Below, in pieces: positions 924 to 47,510 of a DNA stretch of 64,000 bases. Both the position numbers and the translations under genes were made by a program. The DNA comes from Mobula birostris (lineage: Eukaryota): assembly GCF_030028105.1 (NCBI RefSeq), contig NC_092371.1:165037358-165101357 (forward strand), written 5' to 3'. The first letter of the stretch is position 1. Every line of letters starts with the position of its first letter. The notes under the pieces are model-generated. The model saw only the letters and a program-made list of their open reading frames with translations. It searched no databases and was not told where the DNA came from.

Positions 924-3382
924 CAGTGTCTTGAAAAAGTATTCAGCTCCAACCACTGGTTCACATAAATGAGTTACAACCAGGGATTTTATCAATTTAA
1001 CTGAGGATTGTTATTTGTGAATCACATGCTCCTTTTTTCACAGTAGAGCCCCCCCCGCAAAAAAGGGGGAAATTATATAGCATGAAAAACTAAAAATTCT
1101 AAAACTGAGATGTCAGCAATTCAAAAGTATTCATCACCCTTTGCTCAGTTCTTAGTTGAACTAACTCTTGCAGCTATTACAACCAGTAGTCTTTTTTGGA
1201 TAAGTCTCTGTTAGTTTTGCACAATGTGATGGAGCAAGCTCCTCCCATTCCTCCTTGCAAAATTGCTCAAGCTGTGTCAGGTTAGTTGGGGTGCAGCAAT
1301 GGACAGCATTCTTGAGGTGTTGACAGAACTGTTTGATTGGGTTAAGGTCAGGATTTTGACTGGGCCACTCAAGTACAACAATTTTCTTCATTTGAAGCCA
1401 CTCCATGGTTGTTCTGGCAGTGTGCTTTGGGTCACTGTCCTGTTGAAAGATGTACTTCCTCCCCTATTTAAGCTTTCAGGCAGAGGCTACCAGGTTTTTA
1501 TCCAGGATCTCCCTGTATTTAACCGCATTCATCTCCCCATCAATCCTCACCATATTTCCAGTCCTTGCTGCTGAAAAGCATCCCCATAGCCTTTACAGTA
1601 GGGCTGGTGTTAACTCATTCCACCCCCCCCCCCACTCTCTGCTTTCCAAAGGCATTCCCTTGTCCATTCATTCTTCCCCACTAAACTCCCTCCCAGCACT
1701 TATCCCTGCAAGCAGCCAAATTGCTACACCTGTCTATTCATCTCCTCCCTCACCTGCTTTCAGGGCCCCAGACAGTTTTTCCAGGTGAGGCAACATTTCA
1801 CCTGCAAACCTGCTGGGTCACCTATTGTATCTGATGCTCTGACGTGGCCTCCTCTACATTGGTAAGACCTGTTATAAATTGGGGGACCGCTACATCGACC
1901 CCACTGCTCCATCTACCTGAAGCAGAACTTCCCAGTGACCAACATTTTAATTCCCGTTCCGACATCTTGGTCCACAGTCTCCTCTTGTGCCACGATAAGG
2001 CCACCCTCAGGGTAGAGGAGCAACACTTTGTGTTCTGTCTGGGTAGCCTCCAACCTGATGGCATGAATATCAAGTTCTCTTTCCAGTAAAAAAAAATTCC
2101 CTACCTTTCCTCTCTCTTCTATTCCCCACTCTGGCCTTTTACCCCTTCTTACGTGCATAGCACCTCCCCCTGGTGCCCAGTCCTCCTTTACTTTCTCCTA
2201 TGGTCCACTCTCCTCTCCTATCAGATTCTTTCCTCTCCGGCCCTTTATCTTTCCCACCCACCTAGCCTTATCTATCACCTTCTAGCTATCCTTCTTCCCT
2301 TCCTCCCAGTTCTTTTATTCTGGCATCCTTTTCAGTCCTGAAGGGTCTCGGCCTGAAATGTTGCCTGATTGTTCATTTCCATGGATGCTGCCTGCCCTGC
2401 AGAGTTCCTCCAGCAATTTGTGTGTGCTTCCTTGGATTTCCAGATTCTGCAGAATTTCTTGTGTTTGTGGTGTGACCTAACTGAAATGCAATATTAGATT
2501 TATGCCACAGAAACCACTTAGTGTTGAGGCCAAAATATTGCACTTTCGTCTCATCCGACCACAAGACCGTCTTGCACATTTTTACATTACCTTCTAAGTG
2601 GCACTTTCTAAAGTTTTTACGGGCAAGGACATGCTCTTTTAGCCAGGACTCCTTCCTTGTCACTCTTGTATAAATACCCTTTTTGTGCAAGTCCTTAGAG
2701 ATTGTGGAGCCATGAATTTCATCTCCAAGAGCCGCCAACTTCTGCAGCTCACTTAAGAGCGACTGTTAGCATCACAGTAGCCTCTCTTACAAGTGCTATT
2801 CTGCTCAGGCAGTTAAAGTTAAAGGGAAAGCCTGACCTAGGCAATGTGGCAGTGTTTTCATATTTTTTCCACTTTTTCACGATGGACTGCACTGAGCTCT
2901 GACATATGTTCAGAGCCTTTGAGATGGTCTTGTACCCTTCCCCAGATTTGTGCTTCTCTATTATCATTTCCCAGACATGCCTTGGAAGCTCTTTTGTCTT
3001 CATTTTGTTCTGGTCTTTTGAAAATTTACCATACTGGTAGATCTTACAGAGAGAGAGGGTATTATTCTTATGAACTCATTGACAACAGGCGATCCTCCAA
3101 ATTTTTACACCAACAAATTGGATGAGTTGGTAAGGTAGTATACAGTATTGCAGCTGAAGAGAGTTAGCATAGTAACTACAAAGGGGATGAATAGTTTTTC
3201 AGCCTCACAATTTTGTTTTTTAATTTTAGTAAATTGTTGACAGGTTTTAGAATTTTTCTTTTGATTTGACATTATGCACAATGTTGTGTAGATTAGCTCA
3301 AAAACCCCATTTCAATGTATTTTAAATTTAGAATATGAAAATATGAAAAGTTGTGGGGGTGGAATACTTTTTCAAAGCACTG
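924..3382 (-). mobile_element. Tc1/mariner (IR/DR, Sleeping Beauty-like) DNA transposon with decayed transposase
   Basis: TIRs cagtgtcttgaaaaagtattc (924) and gaatactttttcaaagcactg (ends 3382, followed by TA); inner DRs ~1121-1140 and ~3181-3203; transposase pieces MKTKEL..HKSGEGYKTISK (2749-3003), VLWSDETK (2373-2738), LEWPSQNPDLNPI (1161-1406). Confidence 0.92.
1614..2466 (+). mobile_element. Penelope-like (Neptune) 3' fragment: GIY-YIG C-terminus plus pLTR, nested inside Tc1
   Basis: Translation 'HFNS..LRVEEQHFVFCLGSLQPDGMNI' as in the 21497-22453 ORF; pLTR tail gatgctgcctgccctgcagagttcctccagc; degenerate hammerhead ~2333-2370. Confidence 0.85.
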
Positions 3383-7989: not shown

Positions 7990-10790
7990 TAACCCGCTCA
8001 TCCATGTACCAATCCAAGTTTCTCTTAAATGTTGAATTCGAACCCTCATCCACCACTTGCACTGTCAGCTCATTCTACACTCTGACCATCATGAGTGAAG
8101 AAGTTCTCTCTCATGTTCCCCTTAAAAATTTCACCTTTCTGCATTAACTCATGACCTCTAGTTGTAGTCTCACCCAACCTCAGTGGAAAACGCCTGCTTG
8201 CATTTACTCTATCTAGATCCCTCATAATTTTGTATACCTCTATCAAATCTCCCCTCAATCTTCTAGGTTCTAGCAAATAAAATCCTAACCTATCCAATCT
8301 TTCTCTATAACTCAGGTCCTCAAGTCCTCGCAACATCCTTGTAATTTTTCTCATTATTTTTTCAAGCTTTTTTACATCCTTCCTGTAGGTAGGTGACCAA
8401 AACTGCACACAATACTCCAAATTAGGTATCACCAATGTCTATACAATTTCAACATAACATCCAAATTGCTGTACTGAATACATTGATTTACGAAGGCCAA
8501 CATACCAAAAGCTTTCTTTACTACCTATCTACCTATGGCACCATTTTCAAGGAATAATGGATTAGTGTTCCCAAATCCCTCCTTTCTACTGCACTCCTCT
8601 GTGCCCGACTGCTCATGGTGTTAAGACCTACCCAAACTGGTCCTCCCAATTTGCAACACTCCAGACTTGTCTGCATTAAATTCTATCTGCCAGTTTTCAG
8701 TCCATTTTTCCAGCTGGTCGAGATCCCACTACAAGCTCTAATAGTTTTCCTCACTGTCCACTACACCCCAATCTTGGTGTCATCTGCAAATTTGCCAATC
8801 CAGTTAACTACATAATCATCCAGATCATTGATTTAGATGGCAAACAACAACGAACCCAGCACCAATCCCTGCGGCACACTACTAGTCACAGGTCTCTAGT
8901 CAGAAAGGCAACCATCTACTACCACACTCTGGCTTCTTCCATGAAGTCAATATCTAATTCAATTTACTACCTCATTTTGAATGCTAAGCAACTGAACCTT
9001 CTTGACCATCCACCCATTAGGGACCTAGTCAAAGGCCTTGCTAAAGTCCATGTAGATAATTTCTACCGCCTTGCCTTTATCAATTTTCCTGGTAATTTGC
9101 TCGTAAAACTCTGCAAGATTGGTAAAACACAACTTAACACGCACAACGCCATGTTGACTATCCCTAATCAGTCCCTGTCTATCCAAATACTTACATATCC
9201 GGTTCATTAGAATACTTTCCAATAACTTGATATCAGGCTCACCAGCCTGTAATTTGTTGGCTTATTCTTTGAACATTTCTTAAACAACGGAACAACATTG
9301 GCTATCCTCCAATCCTCAAGCACCTCACCCATGGCTAAAAGTATTTCATATCTCTGCTGAGCACCCTGCAATTTCTGCACCAGCCTCCCAAGGGTCTGAG
9401 GGATCACCTTGTCAGTCTCTGAGGATTTATCTTCCCTAATTTGCCTCAAGACAGCTAACACCTCCTCTTCTGTAATCTATTTAGAGTCTATGACCTGGCT
9501 GATGCATTTCCTCATGTCGATAGACTCTACCACCGTCTCCTGCATAAATACAGATGCAAAAAGTCCACTTAGATCTCCACCATCTCTTTCAGCTCCATGC
9601 ATAGATTACTGCTCTGATCTTGCAAAGGACCAAATTTGTCCCCTGCTATCCTTTTGATCTTAAAAAATCTGTAGAAGCCATTAAGATTCTCCTTCATTTT
9701 GTCTGCTAGAGCTACTTCATGCCTTCTTTCAGCCCTCCTGATTTCCTTTTTATACTCAAGTGCCTAATTTCTTCCTGCCTGCCTATACTTGTAATGCACC
9801 TCCTTCTTTTTCAAAGTTCAAAGCTATTATCAAGGCACATATATGTCACTATATATAAACCTCAGATTCATTTTCTTGTGGGGGTATTTAATAAATTCAT
9901 GATAGGATAATAATCATTAAAAATAATCAATGAAACACTGCACTAACTTGGGCATTCAACCAGTGTGCAAAAGACAACAAACTGTACAAAAAGAAGAGAT
10001 TTTCTCTACACAAACTTCTGTCACCTGCCCTGTCTCATTCCCTAATAGGAGATCTAGTGCCGGACTCTCTCCAGTTGGGACTTATATGTACTGACTAAGG
10101 AAACTTTCTTGAACATACTTGACAAACTTTTTCCTGTCCAGCCCTTCTACAGTATGGAAGTCCCAGTCAATATAAAGAAAGTTAGAATCACCTACTATTA
10201 CAACCTTATGTTTCTTGCAATAGTCTGCAATCTCTCTACAAATTTGCTTTTCTAAGTCCCATGTATTGTTGGGTGATCTATAACATAATCCCATTATTGT
10301 GGTCATACCTTTCTTATTCCGCAGTTCTACCCATAAAGCCTCACTGTACGAGCTCTCCAGTCTGTCCTGACTGAGCACTGCCATAACTTTTTCCTTGACC
10401 AGTAATGCATCCCTCCCCCGTCAATCCCTCCCACTCTATCAGATCTAAAACAACAGAACCCTGGAACACTGATCCAGCTGCCAGTCCCACCCCTCCTGCA
10501 ACCCAGTCTACAATGGCTACAATGTCATAATTCCACGTGCTGATTCATGCCCTAAGTCCACCCACCTTTCCTACAATACTCCTTGCATTGAAATATATGC
10601 AGCTCAGAACGTCAGTCTCACCATGTTCAATCTTTTGATTCCTGACCTTGTATGTAAGCTTAACAACATTTTTTCCACAACCACTCCACAATCTATTATG
10701 GCGCAATGGCTCCCATTCCGCTGTAACTCTAGTTTAATACCACCCCCTCTCCCACCTCCATGCAGCACTAGAAAACCTCCCTGCTAGGAC
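7990..10790 (-). mobile_element. Long CR1 LINE remnant (APE endonuclease + RT), interrupted ~9810-10000 by a Rex/Babar-type 3' tail
   Basis: ORF pieces VIVGDSNF..IDW (EN, 10082-10384), WRIANVVPLFKK..NYRLVSL, YMDFSKAFD (RT), LEYCVQFWSP..RGDLIEVYKIM. Confidence 0.9.
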
Positions 10791-12426: not shown

Positions 12427-12559
12427 ATATACTAATCCAAAACTGAACTGACTTGAAACACATATTGGGTATTCATGAGCAGGTTATCAAGTAACCTTGA
12501 TATCATTGTCAGAAGCACTTTCCATTACTTCAATGATAACTGAAAGTGGGCTGATGACT

Positions 12560-12652
12560 GCCGAAGGGTCTCGCCCTGAAATGTCGACTGTACTTTTTCT
12601 CCACACATGCTGCCTGCCCTACTGAGTTCCTCCAGCACTTTGTGCGTGTTGA
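12560..12652 (+). repeat. Solo Penelope pLTR fragment with degenerate hammerhead
   Basis: ctgccgaagggtctcgccctgaaatgtcgactgt followed by atgctgcctgccctactgagttcctccagc. Confidence 0.75.
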
Positions 12653-13090: not shown

Positions 13091-13349
13091 GATCCACTAA
13101 CTTTTGGCATATTAAATGCCCTCCGTGGTTGCTGAGAGAGAATTGAATCGGCTCACTTCATGATTCTGGGAATAGCTGAAGGTGATAAGTGGATTTGTTA
13201 TGCTTGATCTTTTCTGTCTACACAGGTTGATCATTTTACAGACGGCCATTGGATCTCTGTAGCTGTTCTGAATTCCAATGGTTTAATCAAATATCTTGGA
13301 CTCAGCCACTACTGGACAGAACCAGCGACACAAGACTTGTGGGATCCTG

Positions 13350-15450
13350 CGATGTTCAAAATGGTCAACAGCAGGTGCCATTTTGTTGGCTCTTCACTCA
13401 GTTCTGGAACACCTGTTCACTGAAGATGCACCAGTCAAGATGCTGTTCATTGACTACAGCTCCACAATCAACACTAACATCCCATCAAAACTCATCACTA
13501 AGCTCCAAGACCTGGCCCTCGGTACCTCCTTATGCAAGTGGATCCTCGGTTTTCTCACTAGCAGACCCCAGTTAGTATGGATTGGCAACAATATCTTCTC
13601 CACTCATACCACTAACACAGTTGCACCACAGGGCTGTGTGCTAGCCCCTAGCTTTACTCACTTCATACTTGCGATTGTACATCTAACTACAGCTCCAATG
13701 CCATTTTTAAGTTTTCTGATAATACTGCTGTTGTTGACTACTCCTTTGCTTGCTTCTTCAGAAACAGCTCTATTTCTATCTTTAATATCTCTGTTTTCCC
13801 TTTCAGGGTTCTTTTGAAGACTCTGACCTGGAGTTATACGCAGACTTTAGTTCTTTGCGGGAATGGGACCCACTTTCAGGGTCTCACAACAGGCCACTAT
13901 TCGATTTGCCAAGGATGCAGCCTAGAATATTAGTGCGTCTGTGGGGTTCCGGGATTTCATAGCTCTGGAGATGGTCAGACTGGAGGTCAGTGTCGCCGCA
14001 GGAAATTGGTGTGTTGTGGGAGACTAAGATCGAAAGCAGCAAGCTGGCTGCTGGCTATGTGCCCACAGACCCGAGTTCTTTGGGCACAGAGCTCGGAAGA
14101 AGCGATGCTACAGACTTTTAACATCGTTAATCAGCGAGTTGTTTGTTAAGTCTCCACTCTCGCTGTGAAATGGGGACACCTCTTTTTCCCTTATCAGGGA
14201 GAGAGAGAGAGAGAGAGCCTGTGGTATGTTGAATACTGGGTGAACAAGTAGTCTTTGGGGTACTACAAGTCTGTGTCTTTATTGATGCTTTGCTGCCACT
14301 TGAGTGCTTGGTGGGGGGCACTGATGCTTTCTTTTGCTGGTGGGGGAAAGGGGGTTGTTGCTTTGCTGCAGCTTATGCAAGGAGGGGGGGAGATGGGTGG
14401 GGGCCTTTGGGGTTCTAACATTTAATTGTTATTCATTCTTTGGGACACTCCTGTTTCCGTGGATGTTTGCGAAGAAAAGGAATTTCAGGATGTATATTCT
14501 ATACATTTCTCTGAAATTAAATGTATCTTTGAAACCTTTGAATCAAAGGTGAAAATGAATCAGCATATAGGAGTGAGAATGATTTCAGTGGTCCCACAAC
14601 AACCACCTCTCATTCAACATCAGTGAAACCAAAGAGCTAATCGTCATCTACAAGAGGGATAAGCCAGAGGTCCATAAGCCAGTTCTCATTAGGGGAACAG
14701 AGGTGGAGAAGGTCAAGAGAATTGAATTCCTTGATCTTAATGTGTCAGAGGATCTGTCCTAGGATCAGCACATAAGTGTCATCAGAAAGAAAGTATGACA
14801 GAGCCTAGACATTCTGAGAAGATTCCATAGCCTATTACCAAAAACTTTGACAAACCTCTACAGATGCTCAGTAGAGAGTATCCAAACTGATTGCAACATG
14901 GCCTGGTATGAAAACACCAGTGCCCGAGATCATAAAAGGATACAAAATGAGGTGAATACAACCCAGTCAGTCACAGGCAAAGCCCTACCCGCCACTGAGG
15001 ACACACCCAAGGTGCACTGCCACAAGAAAGCAGCATCGAATATCAAGGACCTTCACCATCCAGGTCAAGATCTCTTTTTGCTGCTGTCATCAGGAAGGAG
15101 AAACAAGAGCCTTAGGACCCACACCACAAGGCTCTGGAACAGTATTTACCCTAGAGCCATCAGGCTCCTGTACCGGCATAGATAACCACATTTACCACTA
15201 TTCCAAACTGATTCTACGATATACAGACTCACTTTCAAGGACTCTTTAAAACTCATGTTCTCAGTATTATTTTTATTTGCAGCTTGTCTTCTTTTGCACA
15301 TCATCTGTCAGTTTTTGTCTCTTTATGCGGTTTTTGATGAAATTCTATATTTTTTCTTTTTCCCTGTAAATGCTTGCATGAAAGTGAATATCAAGGTTGT
15401 ATATGGTAACGTACACATTGTACTTCGATAATAAATTCACCCTGAACTGT
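13350..15450 (+). mobile_element. Rex1/Babar-type LINE RT remnant, split by an ~800-bp insertion
   Basis: ALHSVLEHL..MLFIDYSS..IPSKLITKL..LCKWILGFLTSRPQ..APQGCVL (13296-13817) and NLYRCSVESI..AWY (14847-15185); tail gataataaattcaccctgaact. Confidence 0.85.
13737..14542 (+). mobile_element. ~800-bp non-coding retroposon (second copy 43468-44258, minus strand)
   Basis: Collinear with the reverse complement of 43468-44258 from ctcctttgcttgc to gaatttcaggatgtatatt..attaaatgta. Confidence 0.8.
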
Positions 15451-17185: not shown

Positions 17186-17405
17186 ACATAAGAGATTCTG
17201 CAGATGCTGAAAATCCAGGTAACACACACAAAATGCTGGCAGAACTCAGCAGGTCAGGCAGCATCTATGGAATGAAATAAGGAGTCTCCAATTTGGAGAC
17301 AAGAGTCTTCAAAAGGATCTCGGCCCGAAATGTCTACTCTTTATTCTTCTCTATAGATGCTGCCTGACCTGCTGAGTTCCTCCAGCATTTTGTGTTTGTC
17401 ACAAC
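17186..17405. repeat. Fold-back (inverted) pair of Penelope pLTR ends centred on a hammerhead motif
   Basis: 17226-17268 is the reverse complement of 17353-17395 at 41/43 nt; aggatctcggcccgaaatgtc lies in the spacer. Confidence 0.88.
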
Positions 17406-17795
17406 AGCCAGTCTATTACTATCATGGGCTTGTATCTCAGTCATAAATGAATTCTGATACAGTGAGGCTCACCATTCTGTCACTCTAATGACCAATTTAG
17501 GATGTATCAAGATTTCCACAAATTGCTGTTTCAATAAAATTCTTTTTAGTCTGTATTCCCCCAGTGCGTTACTTTTCCCTGATCCCACAGTTACTACAGA
17601 ACTTCACAAAATCACACTAACCTTTCAATGTAAATAGTAAATAGATAACTGCCTCAGCACTGCCAGCCCTGGTCAGACATTCACCTGCAGCTTGCTTGTT
17701 GTAGCATGCTGGAGTCTAATCTTTAACTACTGCAAACCCCAGCTCAATCCCAGATGATGAACACACCCAGAGTAAGTTTAAATGCTGGACTGTAC

Positions 17796-17946
17796 CTCTG
17801 GGAATGATAATGTGTCTTCCTTCAAATCTTTACGCTTGTGGGTCAGGATTAGTGCCAGCATCTCCACAGTTTTTCCTAGACCCATCTCGTCTGCAAGGAT
17901 TCCACCAGGCCAGTCAGCACTTGATAGAGGGCAGTCACGGATAATG
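17796..17946 (-). CDS. SHPRH: SHPRH coding exon 5 (SNF2 Walker A)
   Basis: gtttctag|CATTATC...CCAGAG|gtacag; [21 protein letters not shown]; 151 nt, phase 2 to 0. Confidence 0.95.
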
Positions 17947-19044: not shown

Positions 19045-19123
19045 CAGCCAGTGTAGGGGTTGTAATATAATTTCTTCTCATCTTTAGTGGTGATTTCTTT
19101 CCATAACAAGTGAAGGGACATTT
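19045..19123 (-). CDS. SHPRH: SHPRH coding exon 4
   Basis: caatgcag|AAATGTCC...GGCTG|gtgggt; SLHLLWKEI..KLYYNPYTG; 79 nt, phase 1 to 2. Confidence 0.92.
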
Positions 19124-19977: not shown

Positions 19978-20193
19978 GGTCAGAGGGAGGATCAACGTTA
20001 TAATGTTCTTTCTGAAGCATCCAATTGACAGCCTGACACTGGTATGGTCTGAGTGTTGGAACAAGCAGAGAGTGCTGGACCTTCTCATTGCGGAGGACTT
20101 CCTGTTGATGCGCATGGCGTACAAAGTCATATAGTTCTTCTATATTCTCCCTTTCTAACTCTTTATTTGCTTCTTCAATGATGTTTGATACAT
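19978..20193 (-). CDS. SHPRH: SHPRH coding exon 3 (Q motif)
   Basis: taatctag|ATGTATC...TCTGACC|gtaagt; IEELYDFV..VQHSLLVPTLRPYQCQAVNWMLQKE; 216 nt, phase 1 to 1. Confidence 0.93.
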
Positions 20194-20599
20194 CTAGATT
20201 AAAGGTATAGAAAAAAATATTTTTGGTTAAGCATTGTTTAAAAAATGCCTAGCACACATAAAAATAAACATAGGTTTCATGTTTTAAAAACCTACCATGA
20301 CTTTCAGGCATTTTAGGGAATATCAGTTCATATTATTTCTTCAATGGCTCTCTTAAGAAGAATTGTAAGCATACATTTGGAATTAGGCTAACTGATATTG
20401 ATATTGAACAGCAATCTAAGTTAAACATTCATGCAATGATGTAAAACTGACCTCAAGATTGCACTCTGGAAGAATGGAAGATATAAAAGCAACAAAGATG
20501 TGGAATTCTCCACAATTAAGGAAATGATGCTGAAAAAGCACCACATAGACCTTCTGTTGGGATGTCTGGATAATCATTGTTAAAGTAACCTTTCTCAGT

Positions 20600-20830
20600 A
20601 GTAGCACATTCATCTGAATTTGTGGGTTCAAATCCTGTTTGAGAGCTATGTGTGCTTATCTCTAGGCTTACACTTCTAGTGCAGCTGGCGTGTGGCATTT
20701 TGAATGAAATATTACATAATGAACTGGCTTTGCATCTAAGATACACATAAAATATTATTTGGCACTACTCAAAGAATAGCAGGAACATTAGTCTGTAAAT
20801 ACCATATTTGCCCGTCAACCAACAATAAAA
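20600..20830 (+). mobile_element. Ancient DeuSINE-like (SacSINE1/AmnSINE-related) element
   Basis: tgtgggttcaaatcc (B box), ctaggcttacacttctagtgcag, ggcactactcaaagaatagcagg, atttgcccgtcaaccaac resemble the recalled Deu-domain SINE consensus; decayed. Confidence 0.55.
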
Positions 20831-21182
20831 CATAGTAAACCAAAATAAAGTGGATGGTGAAAACGCAAAATAAAACAGAAAATGCTGGAGTTACTCAGCA
20901 CTTCAGACTGCATCATTATTGTTTCATATCACCGAGCCAAGTTAGAGATAAAATATGTTCCTAATTGCAGAATGATGGGGAAAGAGCTAAAGGCAAGTTC
21001 AGTGATAAGGTGAAAAGAAGGTGAGTTTAATAACTAGGGAAAATTTGCAAGAAAAATGTGTTGTTAATGGTATAAATAAACACGGGCAAGTGTAGAAGAA
21101 AACATGAATAGGTGTAATCAATATCGGGAACTATCGAACCAAATGTTAAGTCTAGAGGGCAGTAATGTGTCAAGCCCATAGA

Positions 21183-22446
21183 CAGCAACACACATAAAAG
21201 TTGCTGGTGAACGCAGCAGGCCAGGCAGCATCTCTAGGAAGAGGTACGGTCGACGTTTCAGGCCGAGACCCTTCGTCAGGACTAACTGAAGGAAGAGTGA
21301 GTAAGAGATTTGAAGTGGGAGGGGGAGCGGGAGATCCAAAATGATAGGGGAGGTCCGGGAAGAAAGACAAGGGGGGGGGACCCAGAGGATGGGCAAGGGG
21401 TATATTCAGAGGGACAGAGGGAGAAAAAGGAGAGTGAAAGAAAGAATGTGTGTATAAAAATAAGTAACAGATGGGGTACGAGGGGGAGGTGGGGCATTAG
21501 CGCAAGTTAGAGAAGTCGATGTTCATGCCATCAGGTTGGAGGCTACCCAGACGGAATATAAGGTGTTGTTCCTCCAACCTGAGTGTGGCTTCATCTTTAC
21601 AGTAGAGGAGGTTGTGGATAGACATGTCAGAATGGGAATGGGATGTGGAATTAAAATGTGTGGCCACTGGGAGATCCTGCTTTCTCTGGCAGACAGAGCG
21701 TAGATGCTCAGCAAAGCAGTCTCCCAGTCTGCGTCGGGTCTCGCCAATATATAAAAGGCCACATCGGGAGCACCGGATGCAGTATATCACCCCAGCCGAC
21801 TCACAGGTGAAGTGTTGCCTCACCTGGAAGGACTGTTTGGGGCCCTGTATGGTGGTAGGGGAGGAAGTGTAAGGGCATATGTAGCACTTGTTCTGCTTAC
21901 ACGGATAAGTGCCAGGAGGGAGATCAGTGGGGAGGGATGGGGGAGACGAATTGACAAGGGAGTTGCGTAGGGAGTGATCCCTGCAGAATGCAGAGAGAGG
22001 CGGGGAGGGAAAGATGTGCTTAGTGGTGGGATCCCGTTGGAGGTGGCGGAAGTTACGGAGAATAATATGTTGGACCCGGAGGCTGGTGGGGTGGTAGGTG
22101 AGGACCTGGGGAACCCTATCCCTAGCGGGGTGGCGGGAGGATGGAGTGAGAGCAGATGTACGTGAAATGGGGGAGATGCGTTTAAGAGCAGAGTTGATAG
22201 TGGAGGAAGGGAAGCCCCTTTCTTTAAAAAAGGAAGACATCTCCCTCGTCCTAGAATGAAAAGCCTCATCCTGAGAGCAGATGCGGCGGAGACGGAGGAA
22301 TTGCGAGAAGGGGATGGCGTTTTTGCAAGAGACAGGGTGAGAAGAGGAATAGTCCAGATAGCTGTGAGAGCCAATAGGCTTATAGTAGACATCAGTGGAT
22401 AAGCTGTCTCCAGAGACAGAGACAGAAAGATCTCGAAAGGGGAGGG
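21183..22446 (-). mobile_element. Young 5'-truncated Neptune-type Penelope-like retroelement (RT thumb, CxxxxCxxC linker, GIY-YIG endonuclease, pLTR)
   Basis: Uninterrupted ORF 21497-22453 with TDVYYKP..SYLDYSSSHP, PCKQNKCYIC, VIYCIRCSRCGLLYIGET; perfect 10-bp TSD agcccataga at 21173-21182 and 22447-22456. Confidence 0.93.
21247..21284 (-). ncRNA. Minimal type-I hammerhead ribozyme motif in the Penelope pLTR
   Basis: Minus strand: tagtc CTGACGA agggtctcggcct GAAA cgTC gaccg; intact CUGANGA/GAAA core, stem II, GUC triplet, stem I gtc/gac; activity untested. Confidence 0.75.
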
Positions 22447-23244
22447 AGCCCATAGAGAAGCATCTTAGGAGTGAGACAAAGAATTATACTCATAGGAACC
22501 CAATAATAGACTTACAGATTGAACAAATGTGTTCCCCAAAAGTAGTCACCCAATGTGCATTTTGTCTGTTTGAGAAATACAGAAAGATAGTTCCAAGTTT
22601 CAATTAACTTGCAAGTCAGCAGTGCTTGTTGCTGACAGTAAAACTGTAAGCGCATAAGACTGTTAGGTGACTCAGGGACAAAAAGTGTCCCGTCTTTAAG
22701 CTTGGCATCAGCCAAGGATTCAAAGCTTTTTTTGGTATGTGTCTGGATCAGGAAAATTATATAGAAACTTGCATTCTGAAGGGCAGCCTATTTTGTAATT
22801 AAATAGAAAGATAGTATTTAACATGGAATCACTGATAAACTTACTCCTTTCAACCTACTTCCCATTCCCCTACTCTTTTGCTTCTATCTGTTTCTCACCC
22901 CAACCCCCACCACCATGCTCTCCCTCCTATCTTCAGTGGTTCTCAGCAGTTTAATGCTGGCAAGTGACAGGTGACTAGGCCCCTCGCAACACAGCCAGTT
23001 ATTAAAGACAACCACTGCGAGTGGTAATACATTCTTTAAGACATGAGAGCAACAACAAACAAGCTTCCCTAGCTGTTCCACCAGGCCTGGTGGAAAATTT
23101 ACTGCATGTATATTTTTATTCATTTTGTGTTTGTGGGAGCCAGCAGGAAGTATTTTTTTTTCCCCAAATGGGATTGAACTTTGACTAGGTTGGGTAAAAT
23201 CATCAGATAAATAAAGTGTAACCAGAAGAGATTCTGCAAATGTC

Positions 23245-23376
23245 AGAATTTTTGAGCAACACCCAAAAATGCTAGAGGAACTCTGCAAGTCTTGGCCCAA
23301 AACTTTGAATGTTTATTGCACTCCATAGATGCTGCCAAACTTTCTGAGTTCCTCCAGTATCTTTTGTGTGTTGCTA
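23245..23376. repeat. Degenerate fold-back of Penelope pLTR ends
   Basis: gcaacacccaaaaatgctagaggaactc ... gagttcctccagtatcttttgtgtgttgc in inverted orientation. Confidence 0.65.
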
Positions 23377-23779
23377 GAGAAGTAAGTAAAGTGATCTTTT
23401 TCAATGTCATATAGCACAGTCTACTTCCCACTTTAATAATGGAAATCCATACGGATAAGGGAGATCAGAGTTTTGTGAATGGTTTTATGTTAATCCAAGC
23501 TTTCTTTTTTCATCGTTCTATGCACATCATGTTAATGGCTCCATAATGAAATCAGCAATGAAGAAATTAGTATTGGAAAAAAGTAAATGATGGAAGTTAT
23601 ATACAAACTAATCTGAGATTAACAGCTCTGATAAAGGTAATTGACTTTAAACATTAACTCTTGTTCCTCTCTCTGGGGATGCTACCTGACCTACTGAGTA
23701 TTCACAGCATCTATACATTGCTTTATAATGGTTCTCAAGCTGCCCTGTTTCCATTTTCCTTTTACAATGAACATTATAC

Positions 23780-23909
23780 CTGGAGCAGCTATGTCATAAA
23801 AGTATTCCATGAGTTTCTGAATCAATGTATTTGCCTTTTTCATTCTCCAACTTCCTTCACTCAGGTATTCTGGCTTTCCCAAACCAGACTCAAGTAGATA
23901 TATAGCAAC
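23780..23909 (-). CDS. SHPRH: SHPRH coding exon 2
   Basis: ctctgtag|GTTGCT...GCTCCAG|gtataa; VAIYLLESGLGKPEYLSEGSWRMKKANTLIQKLMEYF; 130 nt, phase 0 to 1. Confidence 0.92.
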
Positions 23910-25201
23910 CTACAGAGGAATAAAACAAACAGTTTGAAATTAAAGTTAAGTCGACAACTAGACCGTTTGGCAATAGAAAATAAAAATAAAAGCACATCTT
24001 GTACTCAATTTTCAAAGGACTATCCTTAGGATGATGACCTTGAAGAGAATGCAGTGCAAATTTACTAGAGTGCTAAAGAGATCAAGGCCTTCCATTTCAA
24101 ACAGCAACTAAGAAATTAGGTTTGATTGTCTTAGAGAAGGATGAATAGGTAAAGATTTGATGGAGATATTCAAAATTATGAGACAAAGCACTCTGTGTGG
24201 TCTTTTTTACCTGAAGTTTCTCTATTGCTCTGACCTATTTTCTTGAGTGGATGAAAACTGTGACTTAGTAATAAAAGCTATCAATTCTAAGTCACTTCCA
24301 AATCATTTGCCATTCCTTTATGTCACTTGGTCAATGGACAGAAATATATTGCAACCATTAAGGCAGTGCCAGGAAATGAAGAGATTCAAGGAGTAGATCT
24401 TTTAGAAAATGGAGGAGTGACATAACCCCAACAGGAGATAATATTATCAACACACTGGTGCAATGAAAGCACAGCACTATAAACATAGAAGGAGTAGCTC
24501 GCTCAGGCTACTGAGGAAGAATTGTAAAGGTAGAATAACTACTTCAGCTTCATCAACCAAGGGACATGAAGCAGGATTTTCTCTTGAAATTAAGTGGAGG
24601 AGAGAGGGAAAGTAATTTCCATGTAAATTATTTGCATATACAGAAGCCAATGGACAAAACCAGCAGAATCAGAAAAAGCAAGAAACAGAAATAACTACAA
24701 AATAGAAAGACTGAAAGAAGGAACATAAAACAAAAAGAAAGGATACCAAGAGCGGGTGGAAGAGTGAGTAAAAGGGAGAAGGAAAATTAATGTTTTGAAA
24801 ATCTAAGCACATCTTAAATGCCAGTATATTGAGTAGAGTCCCATGAAGATGCAGGGAATCATAACAAAACTAAAGAATGTTCATTAAAATTAAAACTAAG
24901 TAGATGAAGCTGCAGTGGTAGGAAATTGGCATTGATCAGCAATATCGCTTTCTAGTATATCACTGAAACATTTATACCTTTATTTACAAATGATTTGGCA
25001 AAATACAGATTAGTTTGTCAGTATGATGAGGCAGAAGTTCTTAAGTTATCAGTACATAATTGGGGAGAAGACATTTGTGTAATGTGATTACAAACTAAAA
25101 AGAGCAGAAAGTAAATAGAGGAGAGGGAAAACAAAACAGCCAGTCAGGAAGAAAAACTAATAGTCAAGTCAAAGTTGACATTTCATTATAAAAATGAATA
25201 C

Positions 25202-25819
25202 CTTCAATGTTTGAGTCAAAGTTTGACAATCTTCAATATTCTTTTGGAATAATCCAAGAACTTTCTTTTTTTGAAGCCATAATATATCCTCCAATACTGT
25301 ATAACTGAGTGAACTTCTTACAGAGCCAATCACTTCTTCATGGCAATCACTCTCAGAGTCATCACATTCCTTCCTGACTGAAACTTGCAAATGATGGTCA
25401 CTAGCGGTCTTTGACAAGCAGAGGGTGAGAGACAAAATGTTATCTGGAAATACTTGGCCTTCTGGAAGTTGGAGGGTGAACTGATTTAACTCTGCTCGCC
25501 ACTCTTTACCTGGATGGCATGGTGAGATAGTGAGACTGGGAGGTGCAGAGGTACTTGACAGGAAGGCCCCCCCTTCATCCTCAATCTCAGTCACAGTGGA
25601 GATGTTTGATGATTCATTCAATTTCAAACTGCTCAACAGGAGAGACCCTGCCTCCCCCTGTTCTGGAAAATTTGTGTCTGCAGCCTCGGGATTGTTGCTG
25701 CTATCTGTTACAGCAAGTGTTTGGAGCTGCTTCAAGTCATCACACATGTTCCAACTAAGCCTTTTCTTTGCTTCCTCATCTACCCGCGTGGGGGCTGTTC
25801 GTTTCCTTCGGTTGCTCAT
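25202..25819 (-). CDS. SHPRH: SHPRH first coding exon (exon starts at 25848; E3 ubiquitin ligase / SNF2 helicase SHPRH N-terminus)
   Basis: MSNRRKRTAPTRVDEEAKKRLSWNM matches the SHPRH N-terminus; ..LEDILWLQKKKVLGLFQ; acceptor ttgtttcag| before 25848; donor TTGAAG|gtattc; 618 nt. Confidence 0.93.
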
Positions 25820-26039
25820 TGTAGAGCACGTATGGAGCCGGTTTGCAGCTGAAACAAGAATATGAACAACATTCTCAGTAAAAAGGTTGTCTGATGAATC
25901 CCATTATTACTTTCAAAACAGGAAAAACGCAGCAGACCATTTAATACCCATAATCTCCCTCTGCTATTCAATTAGATCGTGACTAATTTGTATTTTAATT
26001 TCAATTTGCTTGCATAATCCTAATATATTTCAGACCCAA

Positions 26040-27690: not shown

Positions 27691-29348
27691 ATAGAAACAT
27701 AGAAAACCTACAGCACAATACAGGCCCTTCAGCCTACAAAGCTGTGCCGAACATGTCCTTACCCTAGAAATTACCTAGGGTTACCCATAGCCCTCTATTT
27801 TTCTAAGCTCCATGTACCTATCCAGGAGTCTTTTAAAAAACCTTATCGTACCCGCTTCCACCACTGTCGCTGGCAGCCCATTCCACGCACTCACCACACT
27901 CTGCGTAAAGAACTTACCCCTGACATTTCCTCTGTTCCTACTTCCAAGCGCCTTAAAACTGTGCCCTCCCGAGCTAGCCATTTCAGCCCTGGGAAAAAGC
28001 CTCTGACTATCCACACGATCAATGCCTCTCATCATCTTATACACCTCTATCAGGTCACCTCTCATCCTCCATCGCTCCAAGAAGAAAAGGCCAAGTTCAC
28101 TCAACCTATTCTCATAAGGCATGCTCCCCAATCCAAGCAACATCCTTGTAAATCTCCTCTGCACCCTTTCTATGGTTTCCACATCCTTCCTGAGGTGAGG
28201 TGACCAGAACTGAGCACAGTACTCCAAGTGGGGTCTGACCAGGGTCCTATATAGCTGTAACATTACTTCTCTGCTCCAAAACTCAATCCCATGATTGATG
28301 AAGGCCAATGCACCGTATGCTTTCTTAACCACAGTCAACCTGCGTAGCAGCTTTGAGTGTCCTATCGACTCGGACCCCAAGATCCCTCTGATCCTCCACA
28401 CTGCCAACACTCTTACCATTAATACTATATTTTGCCATCATACTTGACCTACCAAAATGAACCACCTCACATTTATCTGGGTTGAACTTCATCTGCCACT
28501 TCTCAGCCCAGTTTTGCATCCTATCAATGTCCCGCTGTAAACTCTGACAGCCCTCTACACCCCCAACCTTTGTGTCATCAGCATATTTACTAACCCATCC
28601 CTCCACTTCCTCATCCAGGTCATTTATAAAAATTACAGAGCAGTCCCAAAACAGATCCCTGAGGCACACCACTGGTCACCAACCTCCATGCAGAATAATG
28701 ATGCGTCTACAACCACTCTTTGCCTTTTGTGGGCAAGCCAGTTCTGGATCAACAAAGCAATGTCCCCTTGGATCCCATGCCTCCTTACTTTCTCAATAAG
28801 CCTTGCATGAGGTACCTTGTCAAATGCCTTGCTGAAATCCATATATACTAAATCTACTGGTCTACCTTCATCAATGCGTTTAGTCACATCCTCAAAAAAT
28901 TCAATCAGGCTCGTAAGGCACACTGACTATTCCTAATTATTCTCCAAATGTTCATAAATGTTCATAAATCCTGCCTCTCAGGATCTTCTCCATTAACTTA
29001 CCAACCTCTGAAGTAAGGCTCACTGGTCTATAATTTCCTAGGCTATCTCTACTCCCTTACTTGAATAAAGGAACAACAACCGCAACCCTCCAATCCTCTA
29101 GAACCTCTCCCATCCCCATTGAACAGAGGCTCAGCAATCTCCTCCCTCACCTCCCACAGTAGCCTGGGGTACATCTTGTCTGGTCCCGGTGACTTATCAA
29201 ATTTGATGCTTTCCAAAAGCTCCAGCACATCCTCTTTCTTAATATCTGTATCTTCAACCTTTTCAGTCCACCATAAGTCATCCCTACAATCGCCAAGATC
29301 CTTTTCTGTAGTGAATACTGAAGCAAAGTATCTCTGCTATCTCCTCCT
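27691..29348 (-). mobile_element. Relatively young 5'-truncated CR1 LINE
   Basis: RT YMDFSKAFDKVPH, SKYADDTKVGG and long C-terminal ORF 27781-28419; 3' (ttctatgt)n repeat; flanking catac duplication (27686-27690 / 29349-29353) inside a Rex-type tail. Confidence 0.92.
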
Positions 29349-31585: not shown

Positions 31586-31695
31586 TGCATGGCCGGTTTG
31601 TGTCCCAGAAGATCAGCCGAACGCGCTGGCGGCCGGAGCCCGGCTCCAGTTTACGGCCGCCAGAATGTCTCGCCACCGGCTCCTGGGATGCGGAG
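31585..31695 (+). CDS. NUP43: NUP43 exon 1 (nucleoporin Nup43, WD40)
   Basis: gccATGCATGGC..GCGGAG|gtacgt; MHGRFVSQKISRTRWRP..LATGSWDAE matches the Nup43 N-terminus; 111 nt. Confidence 0.93.
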
Positions 31696-31989
31696 GTACG
31701 TGGGCGTTGAGGCGGGAAAGTGGGAGTGTTTGTGTGGTGGAAGGAAACCAGGAGGCGATGAGGTGAGAAGTTTGAATGAGGGATGGAGGGGAGATTCGGC
31801 GCCAGTGGAGTGGAGGGGAGGGGATGCTTTCCCGGGGGCGGAGGAGAGGTAGGTGGGTGGGTGGGCGGGAAGATGCTTTCCCAGCAGTGGAGGGGAGGTG
31901 AGTGATGCTGCCCATGGGGAGGGAGGGATCCTGGGAGAGACACTGAGTGCCTCGGCAACCTTGCAGCACCTGGTCTATAGCTTTCTGCC

Positions 31990-32440
31990 AGAGTGCAGAT
32001 GCAGATGCTACTCTAACAATAAGCCTTTATAGCAATAAAGACCTTCGTGGGTGTTTATGGTGAGAAACACTTTGGACTCTTCTTCCTTGTCCAACTGTTG
32101 GTAGACCTCAGATAAGTCTACTTTGCTGAAGTGTTTCCCTCTAGAAAGGTTTGCAAATATATCCTCTATCCTGGTAGAGGGTAATTGATCTACCTTCGGT
32201 ACTAGGTTGATGGTCATCTTGAAATTACCACAGGTCCTGACAGACCCATCCTTGTCTACTGGAGGACTGGCATTCCCCATAGGCTCCACTCAATCTTGGA
32301 AAGAATTCCTTCAGCCTCTGCGCTATCTAGCTCACCGGCTACATTATCACAAACATGCTCAATTCATTCTGTATACAGCAGCCTGTTATCTGTTGTGCAA
32401 TCGAACACGTCTTTCCTTTTTGATGTAGCCAGTCATTTCT
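31990..32440 (-). mobile_element. Gypsy/Ty3 LTR-retrotransposon RT fragment
   Basis: ORF 32008-32289 DGSVRTCGNFKMTIN..RIEDIFANLSRGKHFSKVDLSEVYQQ..LTINTHEGLY. Confidence 0.85.
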
Positions 32441-32859
32441 GCTTTTTTTCAAATTTATTTTTATTGTCACCCGATACTCACTGTTTATAAACCCACTACA
32501 GAAAAACATGTTGTGCTTCAACAGGTAGATAGTCGTCTTAAGTTCGTTTTAAAACTTCCTTATCACCATTGTTATGTTTTGTAACTCCAAAAAACTAATC
32601 CAAAAAAAAAAGTACGGGAGCTGGGAGTTGGATTACAACCAACACAACTTAATGAGGTGCTGGGTGCAGCTTGCGGGTGTTGCTGCTCATTCCAGTGCCA
32701 ACATAGCATGCCCACAATTTTCAGAAAAAAAACACAAGCAACACCTGTAACAAAATAATCCCCGTTCCTTTCTCCCACCCAAACAGACAGTCCTCCAGCT
32801 CCAGGATAGGCCACCTTCAGTCCCAAGCTAATGATGTGTTTTTTTTTCTCCCCAAGCAG

Positions 32860-32982
32860 CAGAACAAAGTGTGCCTTTGGGAGACACATGACATTGATAG
32901 CACTGAATCAGACCAGTTGCTTGTGGAGGACCCTGAACTGCTGTGTGAAATAAAGCACAATGGTGATGTCATGGATTTGCAG
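32860..32982 (+). CDS. NUP43: NUP43 exon 2
   Basis: Tandem acceptor aag/cag/cag; QNKVCLW..LLCEIKHNGDVMDLQ|gtaact; 123 nt using the middle AG. Confidence 0.9.
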
Positions 32983-33029
32983 GTAACTGGTCAAGTTTGA
33001 AAGAGATTGTGCATCTTATTTCTTTGAGG

Positions 33030-33845
33030 AAATAATAGGCAGGATAGATGAAGAAGAATCAGTGGAGTTTGTTTATTTGGATTTTCAGAAGACCTTTGAC
33101 AAGGCGCCACACATGAGGCTGCTTAACAAGGTATGAGCCCATAGTATTACAGGAAAGATACAAACAGATGGGCCAACTGGGAGGAAGCAATGAGTTGGAA
33201 TATAGGGGGCCTTTCTAGTTGGCTGCCAGTGACTAGTAGTGTGTCACTGCGACGGTGTTGGAATTGCTTCTTTTCATGTTGTATGTCAGTGATTCGGTTA
33301 AAAGAATTGATGGCTTTGTGGCCAAGTTTGCAGACGATACAAAGCTAGGTGGAGGAGCAGGTAGTGTTGAGGAAGCAGGGTGTCTGTAGAAGGACTTAGC
33401 CAGATAGGGGGAATGGGTAAAAAATTGGCAGATGGAATATAGTGTATGGCCGTGCACTTTGGTAGTAGGAGTAAAGGTGTGGACTATTTTCTAAATGGGG
33501 AAAAAATTCAAAAGTCAAAGATGTAAAGTTACTTGAGATTTCTTCTGCAGGATTCCCTGAAGGTTAACTTGCAGGTTGAGTGGGTGGTAAGGAAGGCAAA
33601 TGCACTGTTAACATTCATTTTGAGGGGACTACAAAAGCAAGGATGTAATGCTGAGGCTTTATAAGGCATTGGTCACACCGCACTTTGAGTATTGAGAGCA
33701 GTTTTAAGCACCCATCTAAGAAAAGATCTCCTGCATTGGAGAGAGTCCAGAGGAAGTTCATGAGCATTATCCCAGTAATGAAAGGGTTAACATGAGCAAA
33801 TGATGTGTTTGGGCCTGTATTGGCTGGAGTTTAGAAGAATGAGGT
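33030..33845 (+). mobile_element. CR1 RT remnant
   Basis: ttggattttcagaagacctttgacaagg (LDFQKxFDK), aagtttgcagacgatacaaag (KFADDTK); frameshifted. Confidence 0.8.
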
Positions 33846-34029
33846 GGAGAAATAAGATACAAAGCATGTGCCTTCATTATCAGTTCAATTTTACATTTTG
33901 TGCACGTGGGTTATATTTGTGTCTATACACCTGATCCCCACTGGTGCTGTAATTTTATGCCAACTCTTATCTATCATACTGTCCAACCACTGTCAATGTA
34001 TAAAGGCAATGGTTTGTCTTTTTTTGTAG

Positions 34030-34107
34030 TTTCTGGATCAGGAGAGGATCGTCACTGCTTCATCTACGGGAAGTGTGACTGTGTTCCGACATCATCCGAA
34101 CAACCAG
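34030..34107 (+). CDS. NUP43: NUP43 exon 3
   Basis: ttgtag|TTTCTG..AACCAG|gtaatg; FLDQERIVTASSTGSVTVFRHHPNNQ; 78 nt. Confidence 0.93.
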
Positions 34108-34889: not shown

Positions 34890-35212
34890 AGAACTGGTTC
34901 CTCTCCTTCCCTCTATCCCATGGTCAATGGTTCTCTCCTGTTAGATTCTTCCCAGCCCTTCACCTGTTCTGCCTATCACCTCCCAATCTCTTGCAGTTCC
35001 TCCTCTCTCCCCCCCCCCCACACACACACACTTCGTTTCACTTATCACTTGTTAGCTTGTACTCCTACCCCTTCAGCAGCTTTTCCGGCATCTGCCCACT
35101 TCCTTTCCCGTCTTGACGCAGGGTCTTGGCTAAAACATTGACTGTTTATTTCCCTGTATGTAGATGCTGCCTGACCTGCTGAGTTTCTTCAGCACTTTTT
35201 CTGTGTTGCTAA
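34890..35212 (+). repeat. Penelope pLTR fragment with degenerate hammerhead
   Basis: Pyrimidine-rich pLTR body, cttgacgcagggtcttggctaaaacattgactg, gatgctgcctgacctgctgag. Confidence 0.7.
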
Positions 35213-36125: not shown

Positions 36126-36454
36126 TTGCCCTCCATTTTTCTTTCATTCATGTGACTCTCTCAGATCTTCTAAAATGTCTAATGTACCTACCTCTATCAC
36201 CACCCCTGGCAGCACATTCCTGTTACCCACTGTTCTCAGTCTAAAAACTACTGACATTCCCCCCTCATACTTTATTCCAATCACTTTAAAATTATGACCC
36301 CTCATATTAGCCAATTTATGCCCATTTGAATATCAATTTTTTGGCAGCCTCTTAACTTCTATATATACAAAACAACTTTCCTTACCAAATGCATACATTC
36401 CAATTTTTTCTTGTACTCACACCTGTCGCCACACCTTGTTCTTCTGTTCCCTTC

Positions 36455-36592
36455 TTTTCCAGTCATGATGAAGGGTCCGAGCCGAAATGTTTACTGTTAT
36501 TCCCCTCAGTAGATGCTGCCTACCTGGCTGAGTTCCTCTAGCATTTTGTGTGTGTTGTCGAAGATTTCCAGCATCTGCAGAATCTCTTGTCT
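36455..36592 (+). repeat. Solo Penelope pLTR end with hammerhead-like motif
   Basis: ccagtcatgatgaagggtccgagccgaaatgtttactg followed by gatgctgcctacctggctgagttcc. Confidence 0.75.
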
Positions 36593-38211: not shown

Positions 38212-38227
38212 GTAAGTTCAACAGCAA

Positions 38228-38842
38228 TGGACTGCTTTGTCGAGCTCCTACACTCCATCCGCCAAAAGCAGAACTTCCCAGTGGCCGATCACTTTAATTC
38301 CAATCCCCATTCCCATTCCAACATTCTGGTCCATGACTTCCTTTTGTGCCACAGTGAGGACACCCTCAGGGTTGAGGAACAACACCTTGTATTCCGTATG
38401 GGTAAATGCCAACGTGATGGCATGAATATTGATTTCTCCTTCCAGTTCATAAAAAAAAACGTTTCCTCCCCTTCCCCTCCCCTTCTATTCCCCACTCTGG
38501 CCTCTTACCTCTTCTCTCCTGCACATCACCTCATCCTGGTGCCCCTCCTCCTTCTCTTCTTCCTATGGTCTGCTCCCCTATCAGATTTCTTCATCGCCAG
38601 CCCTTTACCTTTCCAAACTACCAGGCTTCATCTATCACCTTCTGGCTATCCTCCTTCCCCTCCTCCCACCTTTTTTATTCGGGTTTCCTCTCCCTTCCTT
38701 TCCAGTCCTGAAGAAGGGTCTCGGCCTGAAATGTTGACCATTTGTTTATTTCCATGGGTGCTGCCTGACCAGATGAGTTCCTCCAGCATTTTGTGTGTGT
38801 TGCTTTGGATTTTCAGCATCTGTAGAATTTCTTGTGTTTATG
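38228..38842 (+). mobile_element. Penelope (Neptune) 3' fragment with pLTR and hammerhead motif (38702-38741)
   Basis: PVADHFNSNPHSHS..LRVEEQHLVFR..DGMNIDFS; ccagtcCTGAAGAagggtctcggcctGAAAtgttgacc. Confidence 0.87.
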
Positions 38843-42495: not shown

Positions 42496-43467
42496 GTATA
42501 AACTGCATTAGTTGTTAATATTGATTGTTGATCTTAGCAATTTTTTTTAATTGAATTTTGTCACCCTGGGTCAAAAATGCTATAAACAGAAATTTGATTT
42601 TCTTTTTTAAGAACTGGGTCATTTTTATAGATAAAATATCTGAAAAGGTAAATTTGATGTTTGGGTATAACTGATTTGTGTGTGTCCAGGACAAGGAAGC
42701 GGGCAAGAAAAATCATTGGGGACATTATGTACCTAGCAAACTCCCTTTTCCAAATTCTCCCTTCTGGAAAGTGCAAACTTAACGCCATCTTAAAAGTTTC
42801 TTCCCTCAGGCAGTTAATCTGATCAACCACTCCATTCCATTCCTCCCCCACGCCCCCTCAGCTATTATCTCAGTCACTGCGGTGCGTGCACTGTAAGCAC
42901 TTTAAACCACTTTTTATAATGCTGTTACATTGTAAATGCATGTTGGTATTTATGCACATCTTATTCCATATCTATACATTAACCTCTGACTTATTTTTAT
43001 ATAATTCTTTATTCTTTCTAATTATTGAATGTTAGCAACACACCACAGCAAAATTGTAATTTATGTAAATACATACACTGAATACGTCAATCCTTGAGTT
43101 CATCTTTACAATGGTGAGCTGCCTCAAAAGAACAAAAACTGTGTGCTTTATTTCTTTGGCAGTGTTGAGAACGTACTGTTAAAGCAGATCAAACTGTTAA
43201 TTGTAATGGAAGCAAAATTCAGTGGCCGAGCAGAAAACTGCATTTTCAGTTTTCAAACTGACCATCTGTAGTTTTTGCTTGGCAATTGAAGCATTGTGCA
43301 AGACTAGTGATTCTGAAAGTTGGATGTTAGTTCAGCTGAACTTGCACTGGGGCATACACATGCATTCACATTCCTGATGTCTGTTAGTTTGAGAGTCTGT
43401 GGCCAGGGACTGGAGGCATCCTGAAGAAGGGTCTCGGCCCGAAACAGTGACTGTTTAATAGTTTGAC

Positions 43468-47319: not shown

Positions 47320-47510
47320 CGACACACAAAATGCTGAGGGAACATCAGCGATGTAGGCAACAAATATGCAGAGAAATGAAACGTGTCCCTGGAAGGATCT
47401 CGACTCGAAACGTTGACTATATTCATTCCCCTCTATAGATGCTGCCAGATCCGCTGAGTTCCTCCAGCATCTTGTGTGTGTTGTCCAAGAGTTTCAGAAT
47501 CTCCTGTGTC
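47320..47510. repeat. Fold-back Penelope pLTR remnant immediately upstream of the LATS1 CpG island
   Basis: acacacaaaatgctgagggaacatcagc ... gaaggatctcgactcGAAAcgttgact ... gctgagttcctccagcatcttgtgtgtgt. Confidence 0.75.

Follow-up and report, generated by a model that had tools for sequence, protein, structure and literature searches.

The hammerhead motif described here belongs to the terminal repeat of an abundant Penelope-like element, and the copy found in a host intron is probably an inert passenger. Under the same reading, which we hold to be probable as a whole, the element's RNA starts at the ribozyme, its templates are copied mostly uncut, and a tract just upstream keeps the core off in any RNA that reads through it. 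The motif lies in a stretch of 64,000 nt from Mobula birostris (GCF_030028105.1, NC_092371.1, 165,037,358-165,101,357 of the forward strand), here called the window, and all positions are counted within it. The features are listed in Table 1.

On the minus strand the motif reads CUGACGA (21279-21273), GAAA (21259-21256) and a GUC triplet with C17 at 21252, followed by G at 21251. This matches exactly the spelling, the intact core and the predicted cut between 21252 and 21251 that a first, sequence-only reading had given. Its assignment to the minimal type-I hammerheads of Penelope terminal repeats (pLTRs) also agrees with the architecture. Stem III is essentially absent, as it had stated, and a palindromic ACGU stands in its place. 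Stem I has 5 bp in the family (3+1 in the focal copy), stem II has 4 bp, the core has the form CUGANGA...GAAA...UH, and an extra unpaired base lies between A9 and position 10.1 (A in 67/68 young copies; register probability 0.82-1.0). Both stems were claimed and both are present, with corrections. For stem II, the A-U register proposed earlier has a pair probability of 0.02 by folding, against 0.82 for a register with an extra A followed by G10.1-U11.1. Thus, where a G-C pair usually closes stem II, the focal copy has a wobble, and so does its lineage. This is a variant within the minimal hammerhead family and no ground for exclusion. Stem I carries a mismatch at 21248 that is private to the focal copy; the family letter there is T on the minus strand. 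The Rfam covariance models gave no hammerhead match at E<=10 in the window. The focal motif is confirmed as one of the minimal type-I hammerheads published for Penelope-like elements and is largely known already. Hammerheads of this kind have been on record from Penelope repeats since 2014, and the motif as such is ordinary.

Table 1. Positions of the hammerhead motif, its carrier element, the host intron and related repeat ends in the window.
Feature	Positions	Strand	Basis
Minimal type-I hammerhead motif	21247..21284	-	sequence, folding register, family comparison
Stem I, 5' arm	21284-21280	-	sequence
Initiator-like motif; A at 21283 (A-4) is the commonest start of short sister copies	21279..21285	-	genome-wide start counts
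Extra A	21272	-	register by folding
Stem II with CUCG loop and G10.1-U11.1 wobble	21271-21260	-	register by folding
Palindromic ACGU	21256-21253	-	sequence
Stem I, 3' arm, mismatch at 21248	21251-21247	-	sequence, family comparison
Pyrimidine tract predicted to pair with CUGACGAAGGG, blocking the core in read-through RNA	21286..21296	-	folding only
5'-truncated Penelope-like (Neptune-type) element	21184..22448	-	BLAST against sister loci; 3'-end peak
ORF remnant: end of RT, Cys-rich linker, GIY-YIG endonuclease	21497..22448	-	ORF list; domain search
Target-site duplication, 3' copy, 8 bp	21175..21182	-	junction sequence
Target-site duplication, 5' copy, 8 bp	22449..22456	-	junction sequence
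Host intron (GT-AG) of SHPRH-like gene, between exons 23780-23907 and 19978-20193	20194..23779	-	spliced contigs, domains
Older-subfamily pLTR end with GUU triplet and U at 11.1; besides the focal copy, the only one in the window with an intact core	38690..38802	+	profile, core check
Two old pLTR ends, head to head (minus 17220-17318, plus 17308-17399), with broken or missing cores	17220..17399		profile, core check
Old pLTR end, core with 3-nt deletion	2325..2428	+	profile, core check
Old pLTR end, broken core	12557..12651	+	profile, core check
Old pLTR end, broken core	35096..35208	+	profile, core check
Old pLTR end, C3 changed	36449..36557	+	profile, core check
pLTR fragment, CUGAAGA and GAAA kept, UH triplet missing	43419..43459	+	profile, core check
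Old pLTR end, broken core	47392..47483	+	profile, core check

The anatomy of the carrier is that of an endonuclease-positive Penelope-like element of the Neptune/Nematis type. The focal insertion ends 67 nt past the predicted cut and is without ~75 nt at 21349/21351 that its sister copies have. The motif lies ~215 nt behind the stop of the ORF remnant. The GIY-YIG domain of this remnant scores E=0.024, below Pfam's cut-off; in one sister copy (L160) the GIY-YIG domain is above the cut-off (E=7.9e-05) and the RVT_1 domain below it (E=1.7e-05). Sister elements are 89-97% alike and carry a YIDD motif, and the Cys-rich linker between RT and endonuclease shows as a CxxxxCxxC stretch in the ORF. Partial tandems of the form pLTR-ORF-pLTR occur in 7/20 long copies fetched, with motifs 3.5-3.9 kb apart on both sides of the RT-GIY-YIG ORF, which places the motif in the pLTR; the ORF starts 137-138 nt past the upstream cut in 7/7 of them. 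A single ORF with RT and C-terminal GIY-YIG, partial tandems, frequent inverted and 5'-truncated copies, and an optional tail are what is expected of an EN+ Penelope-like element. The placement in Neptune over Nematis is suggested by host range and by the linker, which is common to Nematis too. In about 8 of the 20 long copies (L157, L160, L164, L170, L171, L174-L176) a ~210-nt stretch of the ORF is duplicated internally, within its low-complexity 5' part.

On its own, the core pattern matches the window no more often than chance would allow (11 matches against a mean of 6.5; 11 are reached in 8/100 shuffles). A repeat-family profile built from copies of the element found 19 copies in the window, two of them marginal, and 137 copies in 650 kb of other regions, with none in a reversed control. 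These 650 kb (66 regions, without N) were taken at round-number positions on large contigs and are not a true random draw. An intact core (CUGANGA, GAAA, UH) is present in 2/19 window copies (21256 and 38708) and in 33/137 sampled copies, 103 of the 137 spanning the motif. The sequence-only reading had named eight further positions as variants of the ribozyme. All are real family members, but with the focal copy included only two of the nine have a whole core, and to call them a family of ribozymes was an overstatement given that the cores are broken in seven. Its expectation of a very high number of motifs in this genome holds. Extrapolation from the 650 kb to the 4.01-Gb genome gives ~850,000 pLTR ends and ~200,000 intact cores, and exact counts of the young subfamily set a floor of 59,727 copies by flank anchors or 72,525 by the downstream anchor.

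Head-to-head pairs of pLTR ends 5-20 nt apart make many small palindromic insertions (G000:C1:4257672-4257744, C1:7803646-7803724, C1:24275222-24275304, and 17220-17399 in the window). Some of these pairs arise via fold-back through stem I, and the inverted arm begins one base past the cut. We did not find a hammerhead-bearing tandem array in the window; genome-wide, 93 very short repeats of the U-lineage described below were found. Short arrays of at least three ribozyme-only units of 32-40 nt exist at L275, L287 and G000:C4:178772333-178772529. They set cores side by side, and dimers in cis could form there. Other mobile elements in the window, recognized by eye, include Tc1/mariner-like transposase remnants (1161-1463 and 2373-3075, minus strand, from the ORF list), fragments of CR1-like, L2-like and RTE-like LINEs (8070-10420, 27781-29336, 13287-14528, 63070-63571), and fragments like the reverse transcriptase of LTR retrotransposons (31613-32289, minus strand).

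The host gene is read from its minus-strand exons, which encode SNF2, linker-histone and PHD domains, the domain order of SHPRH. Contigs from 4/4 runs (2 studies) join exons 25200-25852, 23780-23907, 19978-20193, 19045-19123 and 17795-17946. They skip 20194-23779, so the intron is spliced and the motif lies sense inside it. Domains and spliced contigs thus bear out the sense position claimed earlier. The hint of function drawn from the motif being transcribed went too far: the intron is spliced normally, two stems are weakened, the core is predicted to pair with upstream sequence, and the other sense copy is far away. A search of the 80 kb past the window's left end, which contain the rest of the SHPRH-like gene, found one other core-intact sense copy, ~35 kb downstream, with G at 11.1 and a mispaired stem II. 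Normal splicing in the contigs may leave room for cutting of a fraction of the pre-mRNA. The SHPRH-like gene faces away from two plus-strand genes, one at 32707-44819 with a WD40 match, presumably NUP43-like, and one at 50333-61884 without a Pfam match, which we assume to be LATS1-like. The second core-intact motif (38708, plus strand) would be sense in an intron of the WD40 gene.

The ends of the copies bear on how the element's RNA is made. In matched windows of five positions, stem I has 3,375 5' ends, the upstream window 575 and the window at the cut 596; about a third of the upstream ends listed are small indels, and the filter for the cut window is about a fifth stricter. The 5' ends at the cut are in no excess and were rejected as a cleavage footprint. 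Among 100 downstream-anchored copies none starts at the cut, and ~17/34 of the short ones have their start no more than 5 nt ahead of C3 (hand count). Since short copies begin at the first base of stem I, the ribozyme is likely where the element RNA starts, and most templates are likely copied without having been cut. The base preceding A-4 matches in 17/55, the chance level, which gives a sharp edge at A-4. Several of these copies are bracketed by target duplications of 8-13 bp. A G precedes A-4 in 19/55, but 8 are explained by fold-back homology and the remaining 11/47 are no excess (hand count), so a cap-derived extra G was rejected. The initiator consensus is YYANWYY. Judged from DNA ends, the RNA 5' end is likely A-4.

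At the other side, 3' ends lie 65-105 nt past the cut overall, with peaks at cut+65-70 and cut+100-105 (n=68). Ends at the cut itself are nearly absent. A genome-wide search for breaks within 4 nt past the cut, with a filter that lets about a fifth through, gave 48 matches, most of them 1-nt indels, and the single-base losses at cut+1 (10/48) are matched by those at cut+5 (9/48). In the mechanism that we prefer, the element RNA would begin at A-4, 138+32 nt ahead of the ORF, probably from a Pol II initiator. The tail would hold the internal start of reverse transcription, on template RNA that would almost always be uncut at both ribozymes. Cutting would be rare and would depend either on the element's protein or on a second motif, joined through the ACGU palindrome. 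The pyrimidine tract is predicted to pair with the core and turn it off wherever sequence lies upstream, as at the downstream pLTR or in a host intron.

Folding predictions fit such occlusion. Taken in isolation, the focal motif has a minimum-energy structure in which core and cut region are paired, and it folds no better than shuffles (z-scores 0.21, 0.69 and -0.18). Across 46 copies with U at 11.1, the probability of stem I is 0.011 with 56 nt of native upstream sequence and 0.26 if the RNA starts at A-4. It is 0.16 with shuffled upstream sequence (25 copies, 4 shuffles each) and 0.21 where foreign DNA lies upstream, in 10 short copies. For the focal copy the values are 0.0001 with native upstream sequence and 0.05 from A-4. 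The tract pairs with the core in 85% of native cases vs 39% even when it is shuffled, and by folding the pairing is also seen in 4/4 old copies. Under a model that includes neither hammerhead tertiary structure nor dimer terms, the upstream pyrimidines are thus predicted to block the core in read-through RNA, including that of the SHPRH-like intron. If the tract blocks the core wherever upstream sequence is present, only a motif at the RNA 5' end could be active.

The wobble of the focal copy marks a young lineage. Exact genome-wide matches have U at 11.1 in 24,666 copies and C in 6,283, and the mirror-image CpG change is found in 1,524. With the mirror change 16 times rarer, CpG decay is ruled out as the origin of U11.1, and ~23,000 copies inherited it. 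U11.1 is linked to another diagnostic base (33/56 vs 0/10, p=0.0009), and the copies that carry it are younger by non-CpG divergence (1.45% vs 3.8%, p=0.005). The upstream motifs of tandems have U at 11.1 in 7/7, at loci found by a U-lineage query. In contigs from three other organisms, C makes up 57-66% at 11.1, and old copies show symmetric decay. By these sequence comparisons C11.1 is ancestral, and the youngest lineage inherited U in place of the conserved C. Predicted stem I is lower in U- than in C-copies (0.26 vs 0.59, n=46 and 6, p=0.017). We did not find rate data for G10.1-U11.1 in the literature searched. The wobble may be tolerated in the core-intact focal copy.

Two further records bear on whether the ribozyme ever cuts. 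The first is the 93 short head-to-tail repeats of the U-lineage, in which C17 is joined straight to A-4, without any bases in common, in 16 rows (14 loci). Flanks differ among these 14 loci, and in 14/14 the upstream piece does not run past A-4 and so fits the predicted 32-nt 5' product. All homology-free joints placed at the cut come to 25 rows, ~22 loci (hand count). Fourteen exact cut-to-start loci suggest that cutting is not nil. A second joint site, 6-7 nt past the cut, has 30 rows, ~21 loci (hand count; six were fetched and have the same build), and since it is joined as often, germ-line cutting is suggested but not shown. Six joints carry G instead of C17 before the restart (e.g., G000:C4:52144334, C6:75560144, C7:42485121).

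The second record is conservation. The sequence-only reading had made its case depend in part on the core being better conserved than the flanking pLTR sequence across copies, and the outcome is divided. In 68 young copies picked by their flanks only, the core is not better kept (changes at 9/612 core vs 38/1904 other non-CpG sites, p=0.49); by their substitutions, young copies decay neutrally, as expected of dead copies. When the profiles of young (24) and old (78) copies are compared, 2/37 columns differ in the ribozyme and 31/76 in the flanks (p=5e-05), in a single comparison counted by hand, with low-complexity flanks and two subfamily profiles resolved. The ribozyme is not conserved above the 25-column block just downstream of it, which differs at 3/25 (p=0.38). 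Since the ribozyme and this block are alike between subfamilies, master elements kept the motif together with its neighbouring block. Cross-species fixed differences (one majority change in the motif, ~7 in the flanks) are too few to test.

These records allow a reading, possible if rather unlikely, in which the 5'-end ribozyme really cuts in the germ line. It would remove a 32-nt leader (A-4 to C17), decap the element mRNA and limit or redirect expression, and the weakened U11.1 lineage would have done well. The exact joints in 16/93 repeats, the conservation between subfamilies, and the youth and lower predicted stem I of the U-lineage argue for it. Against it, the second joint site is used about as often and has no ribozyme explanation, very few copies carry a joint (93 of at least 70,000), the downstream block is equally conserved, and the success of the U-lineage may have nothing to do with base 11.1. 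It is unlikely, too, that the sequence is kept for another job, as initiator plus downstream promoter or as a structure bound by the element's protein, with catalysis vestigial. In its favour, conservation starts exactly at A-4 and runs on into the downstream block, and the closing pair was let drift to G-U. An initiator is part of the internal promoter of Penelope (PMC2377424), Naiad elements are described as having spread without hammerheads (PMC8557442), and ribozyme mutants are reported not to impair insertion in vitro (PMC11167929). Against it stand the exact joints at the cut and the fact that every catalytic position, the two stems and the palindrome persist in young as in old subfamilies, and in contigs from three other organisms. 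A combined version, in which the motif is a position switch, blocked when read through and free at the RNA 5' end, where in the germ line it removes a capped leader of 32 nt, seems to us quite unlikely. The C17-to-A-4 joints would then be its fossils, and the recent lineage with the greatest success would have tuned the ribozyme down via C11.1-to-U.

In place of a transcription start, the pile-up of 5' ends could reflect the use of an AG splice acceptor directly ahead of the motif, or else microhomology at fold-backs; we consider such an origin improbable. A pyrimidine tract followed by AG does precede the motif, and among 100 listed of the 3,375 stem-I starts, G at -3 is kept in 82 and AG in 55, like exon ends. 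An intron of Drosophila Penelope is reported to end at helix I (PMC4209133), and inverted element sequence lies upstream in 16/30 of such copies. But AG at -4/-3 is the element's own sequence, A is scarce at -5 (3/55), and 14 copies have unique upstream DNA that in several is the duplicated target site and no exon. We saw no common upstream exon among the stem-I-start copies. Finally, it is very improbable that the intronic copy cuts the pre-mRNA of the SHPRH-like gene, as a monomer or with another copy, and so lowers or times its expression, for although CUGANGA, GAAA and GUC are intact and sense in a transcribed intron, and family RNA is abundant enough in contigs (summed over all copies) that trans partners could exist, two stems are weakened and occlusion is predicted, the insertion is young with no sign of selection, the nearest other core-intact sense copy found is the distant one with G at 11.1, the intron is spliced in all four runs, and in published work monomers show no activity and dimers little (PMC4209133; reviewed in PMC6765202).

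Tens of thousands of young copies in this genome form a natural record of the probable RNA start, of mostly uncut templates, of weak and strong alleles (U or C at 11.1) and of rare joints at the cut. They also suggest a reason why the genome carries ~200,000 core-intact motifs, many of them intronic, without obvious harm.

Minimal hammerheads were described in the pLTRs of metazoan Penelope-like elements by Cervera and De la Pena (2014, PMC4209133). As in the motifs presented there, the ribozyme here is of type I without stem III, with a palindromic 15.2-16.2, an extra base between A9 and 10.1 and a stem I of 4-5 bp. Copies are likewise mostly solitary and derived from truncated elements, with opposite-strand pairs and tandem motifs, ~3 kb apart there. 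Stem II is 4 bp here and 6-8 bp there, and the dominant young lineage here has G10.1-U11.1 where the published pair is a highly conserved G-C. The number of motifs is also different, with ~200,000 core-intact copies here (extrapolated, by a looser test than their descriptor) vs 4,000-9,000 in coelacanth and Xenopus. We found no description of a G-U lineage or of 5' starts at stem I in the literature searched; supplements and subscription papers may hold one. Non-LTR retrozymes of animals, reported from one cartilaginous fish (bioRxiv 10.64898/2026.07.22.740005), also have hammerheads derived from Penelope pLTRs; they form tandem arrays, whereas the copies in Mobula birostris are ends of elements and lie dispersed. 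A search for shark or ray descriptions led to this report, alongside a review and genome papers. In viral leaders, 5' self-cleavage is reported to play a part in translation (PMC13725137).

Neptune and Nematis EN+ elements (Craig et al., 2021, PMC8557442) share with the element here the RT, the Cys-rich linker and the C-terminal GIY-YIG, as well as 5' truncation, partial tandems, inverted 5' copies and a tail. Another close relative in kind is PAc, a Poseidon element of the green anole, which is reported to use uncut RNA and to need its protein to cut (Frangieh et al., 2024, PMC11167929). PAc has two internal reverse-transcription start sites and an optional tail of 30-40 nt, and two 3'-end peaks are seen here; its template is uncut, as the copy ends suggest for the element here. 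The two differ in that the PAc ORF starts inside stem II and the ORF here 138 nt past the cut, and PAc belongs to Poseidon while the linker here, rich in Cys, is that of Neptune/Nematis. For PAc, cutting with the help of the protein has been shown; in the mechanism proposed here it would be one of two routes.
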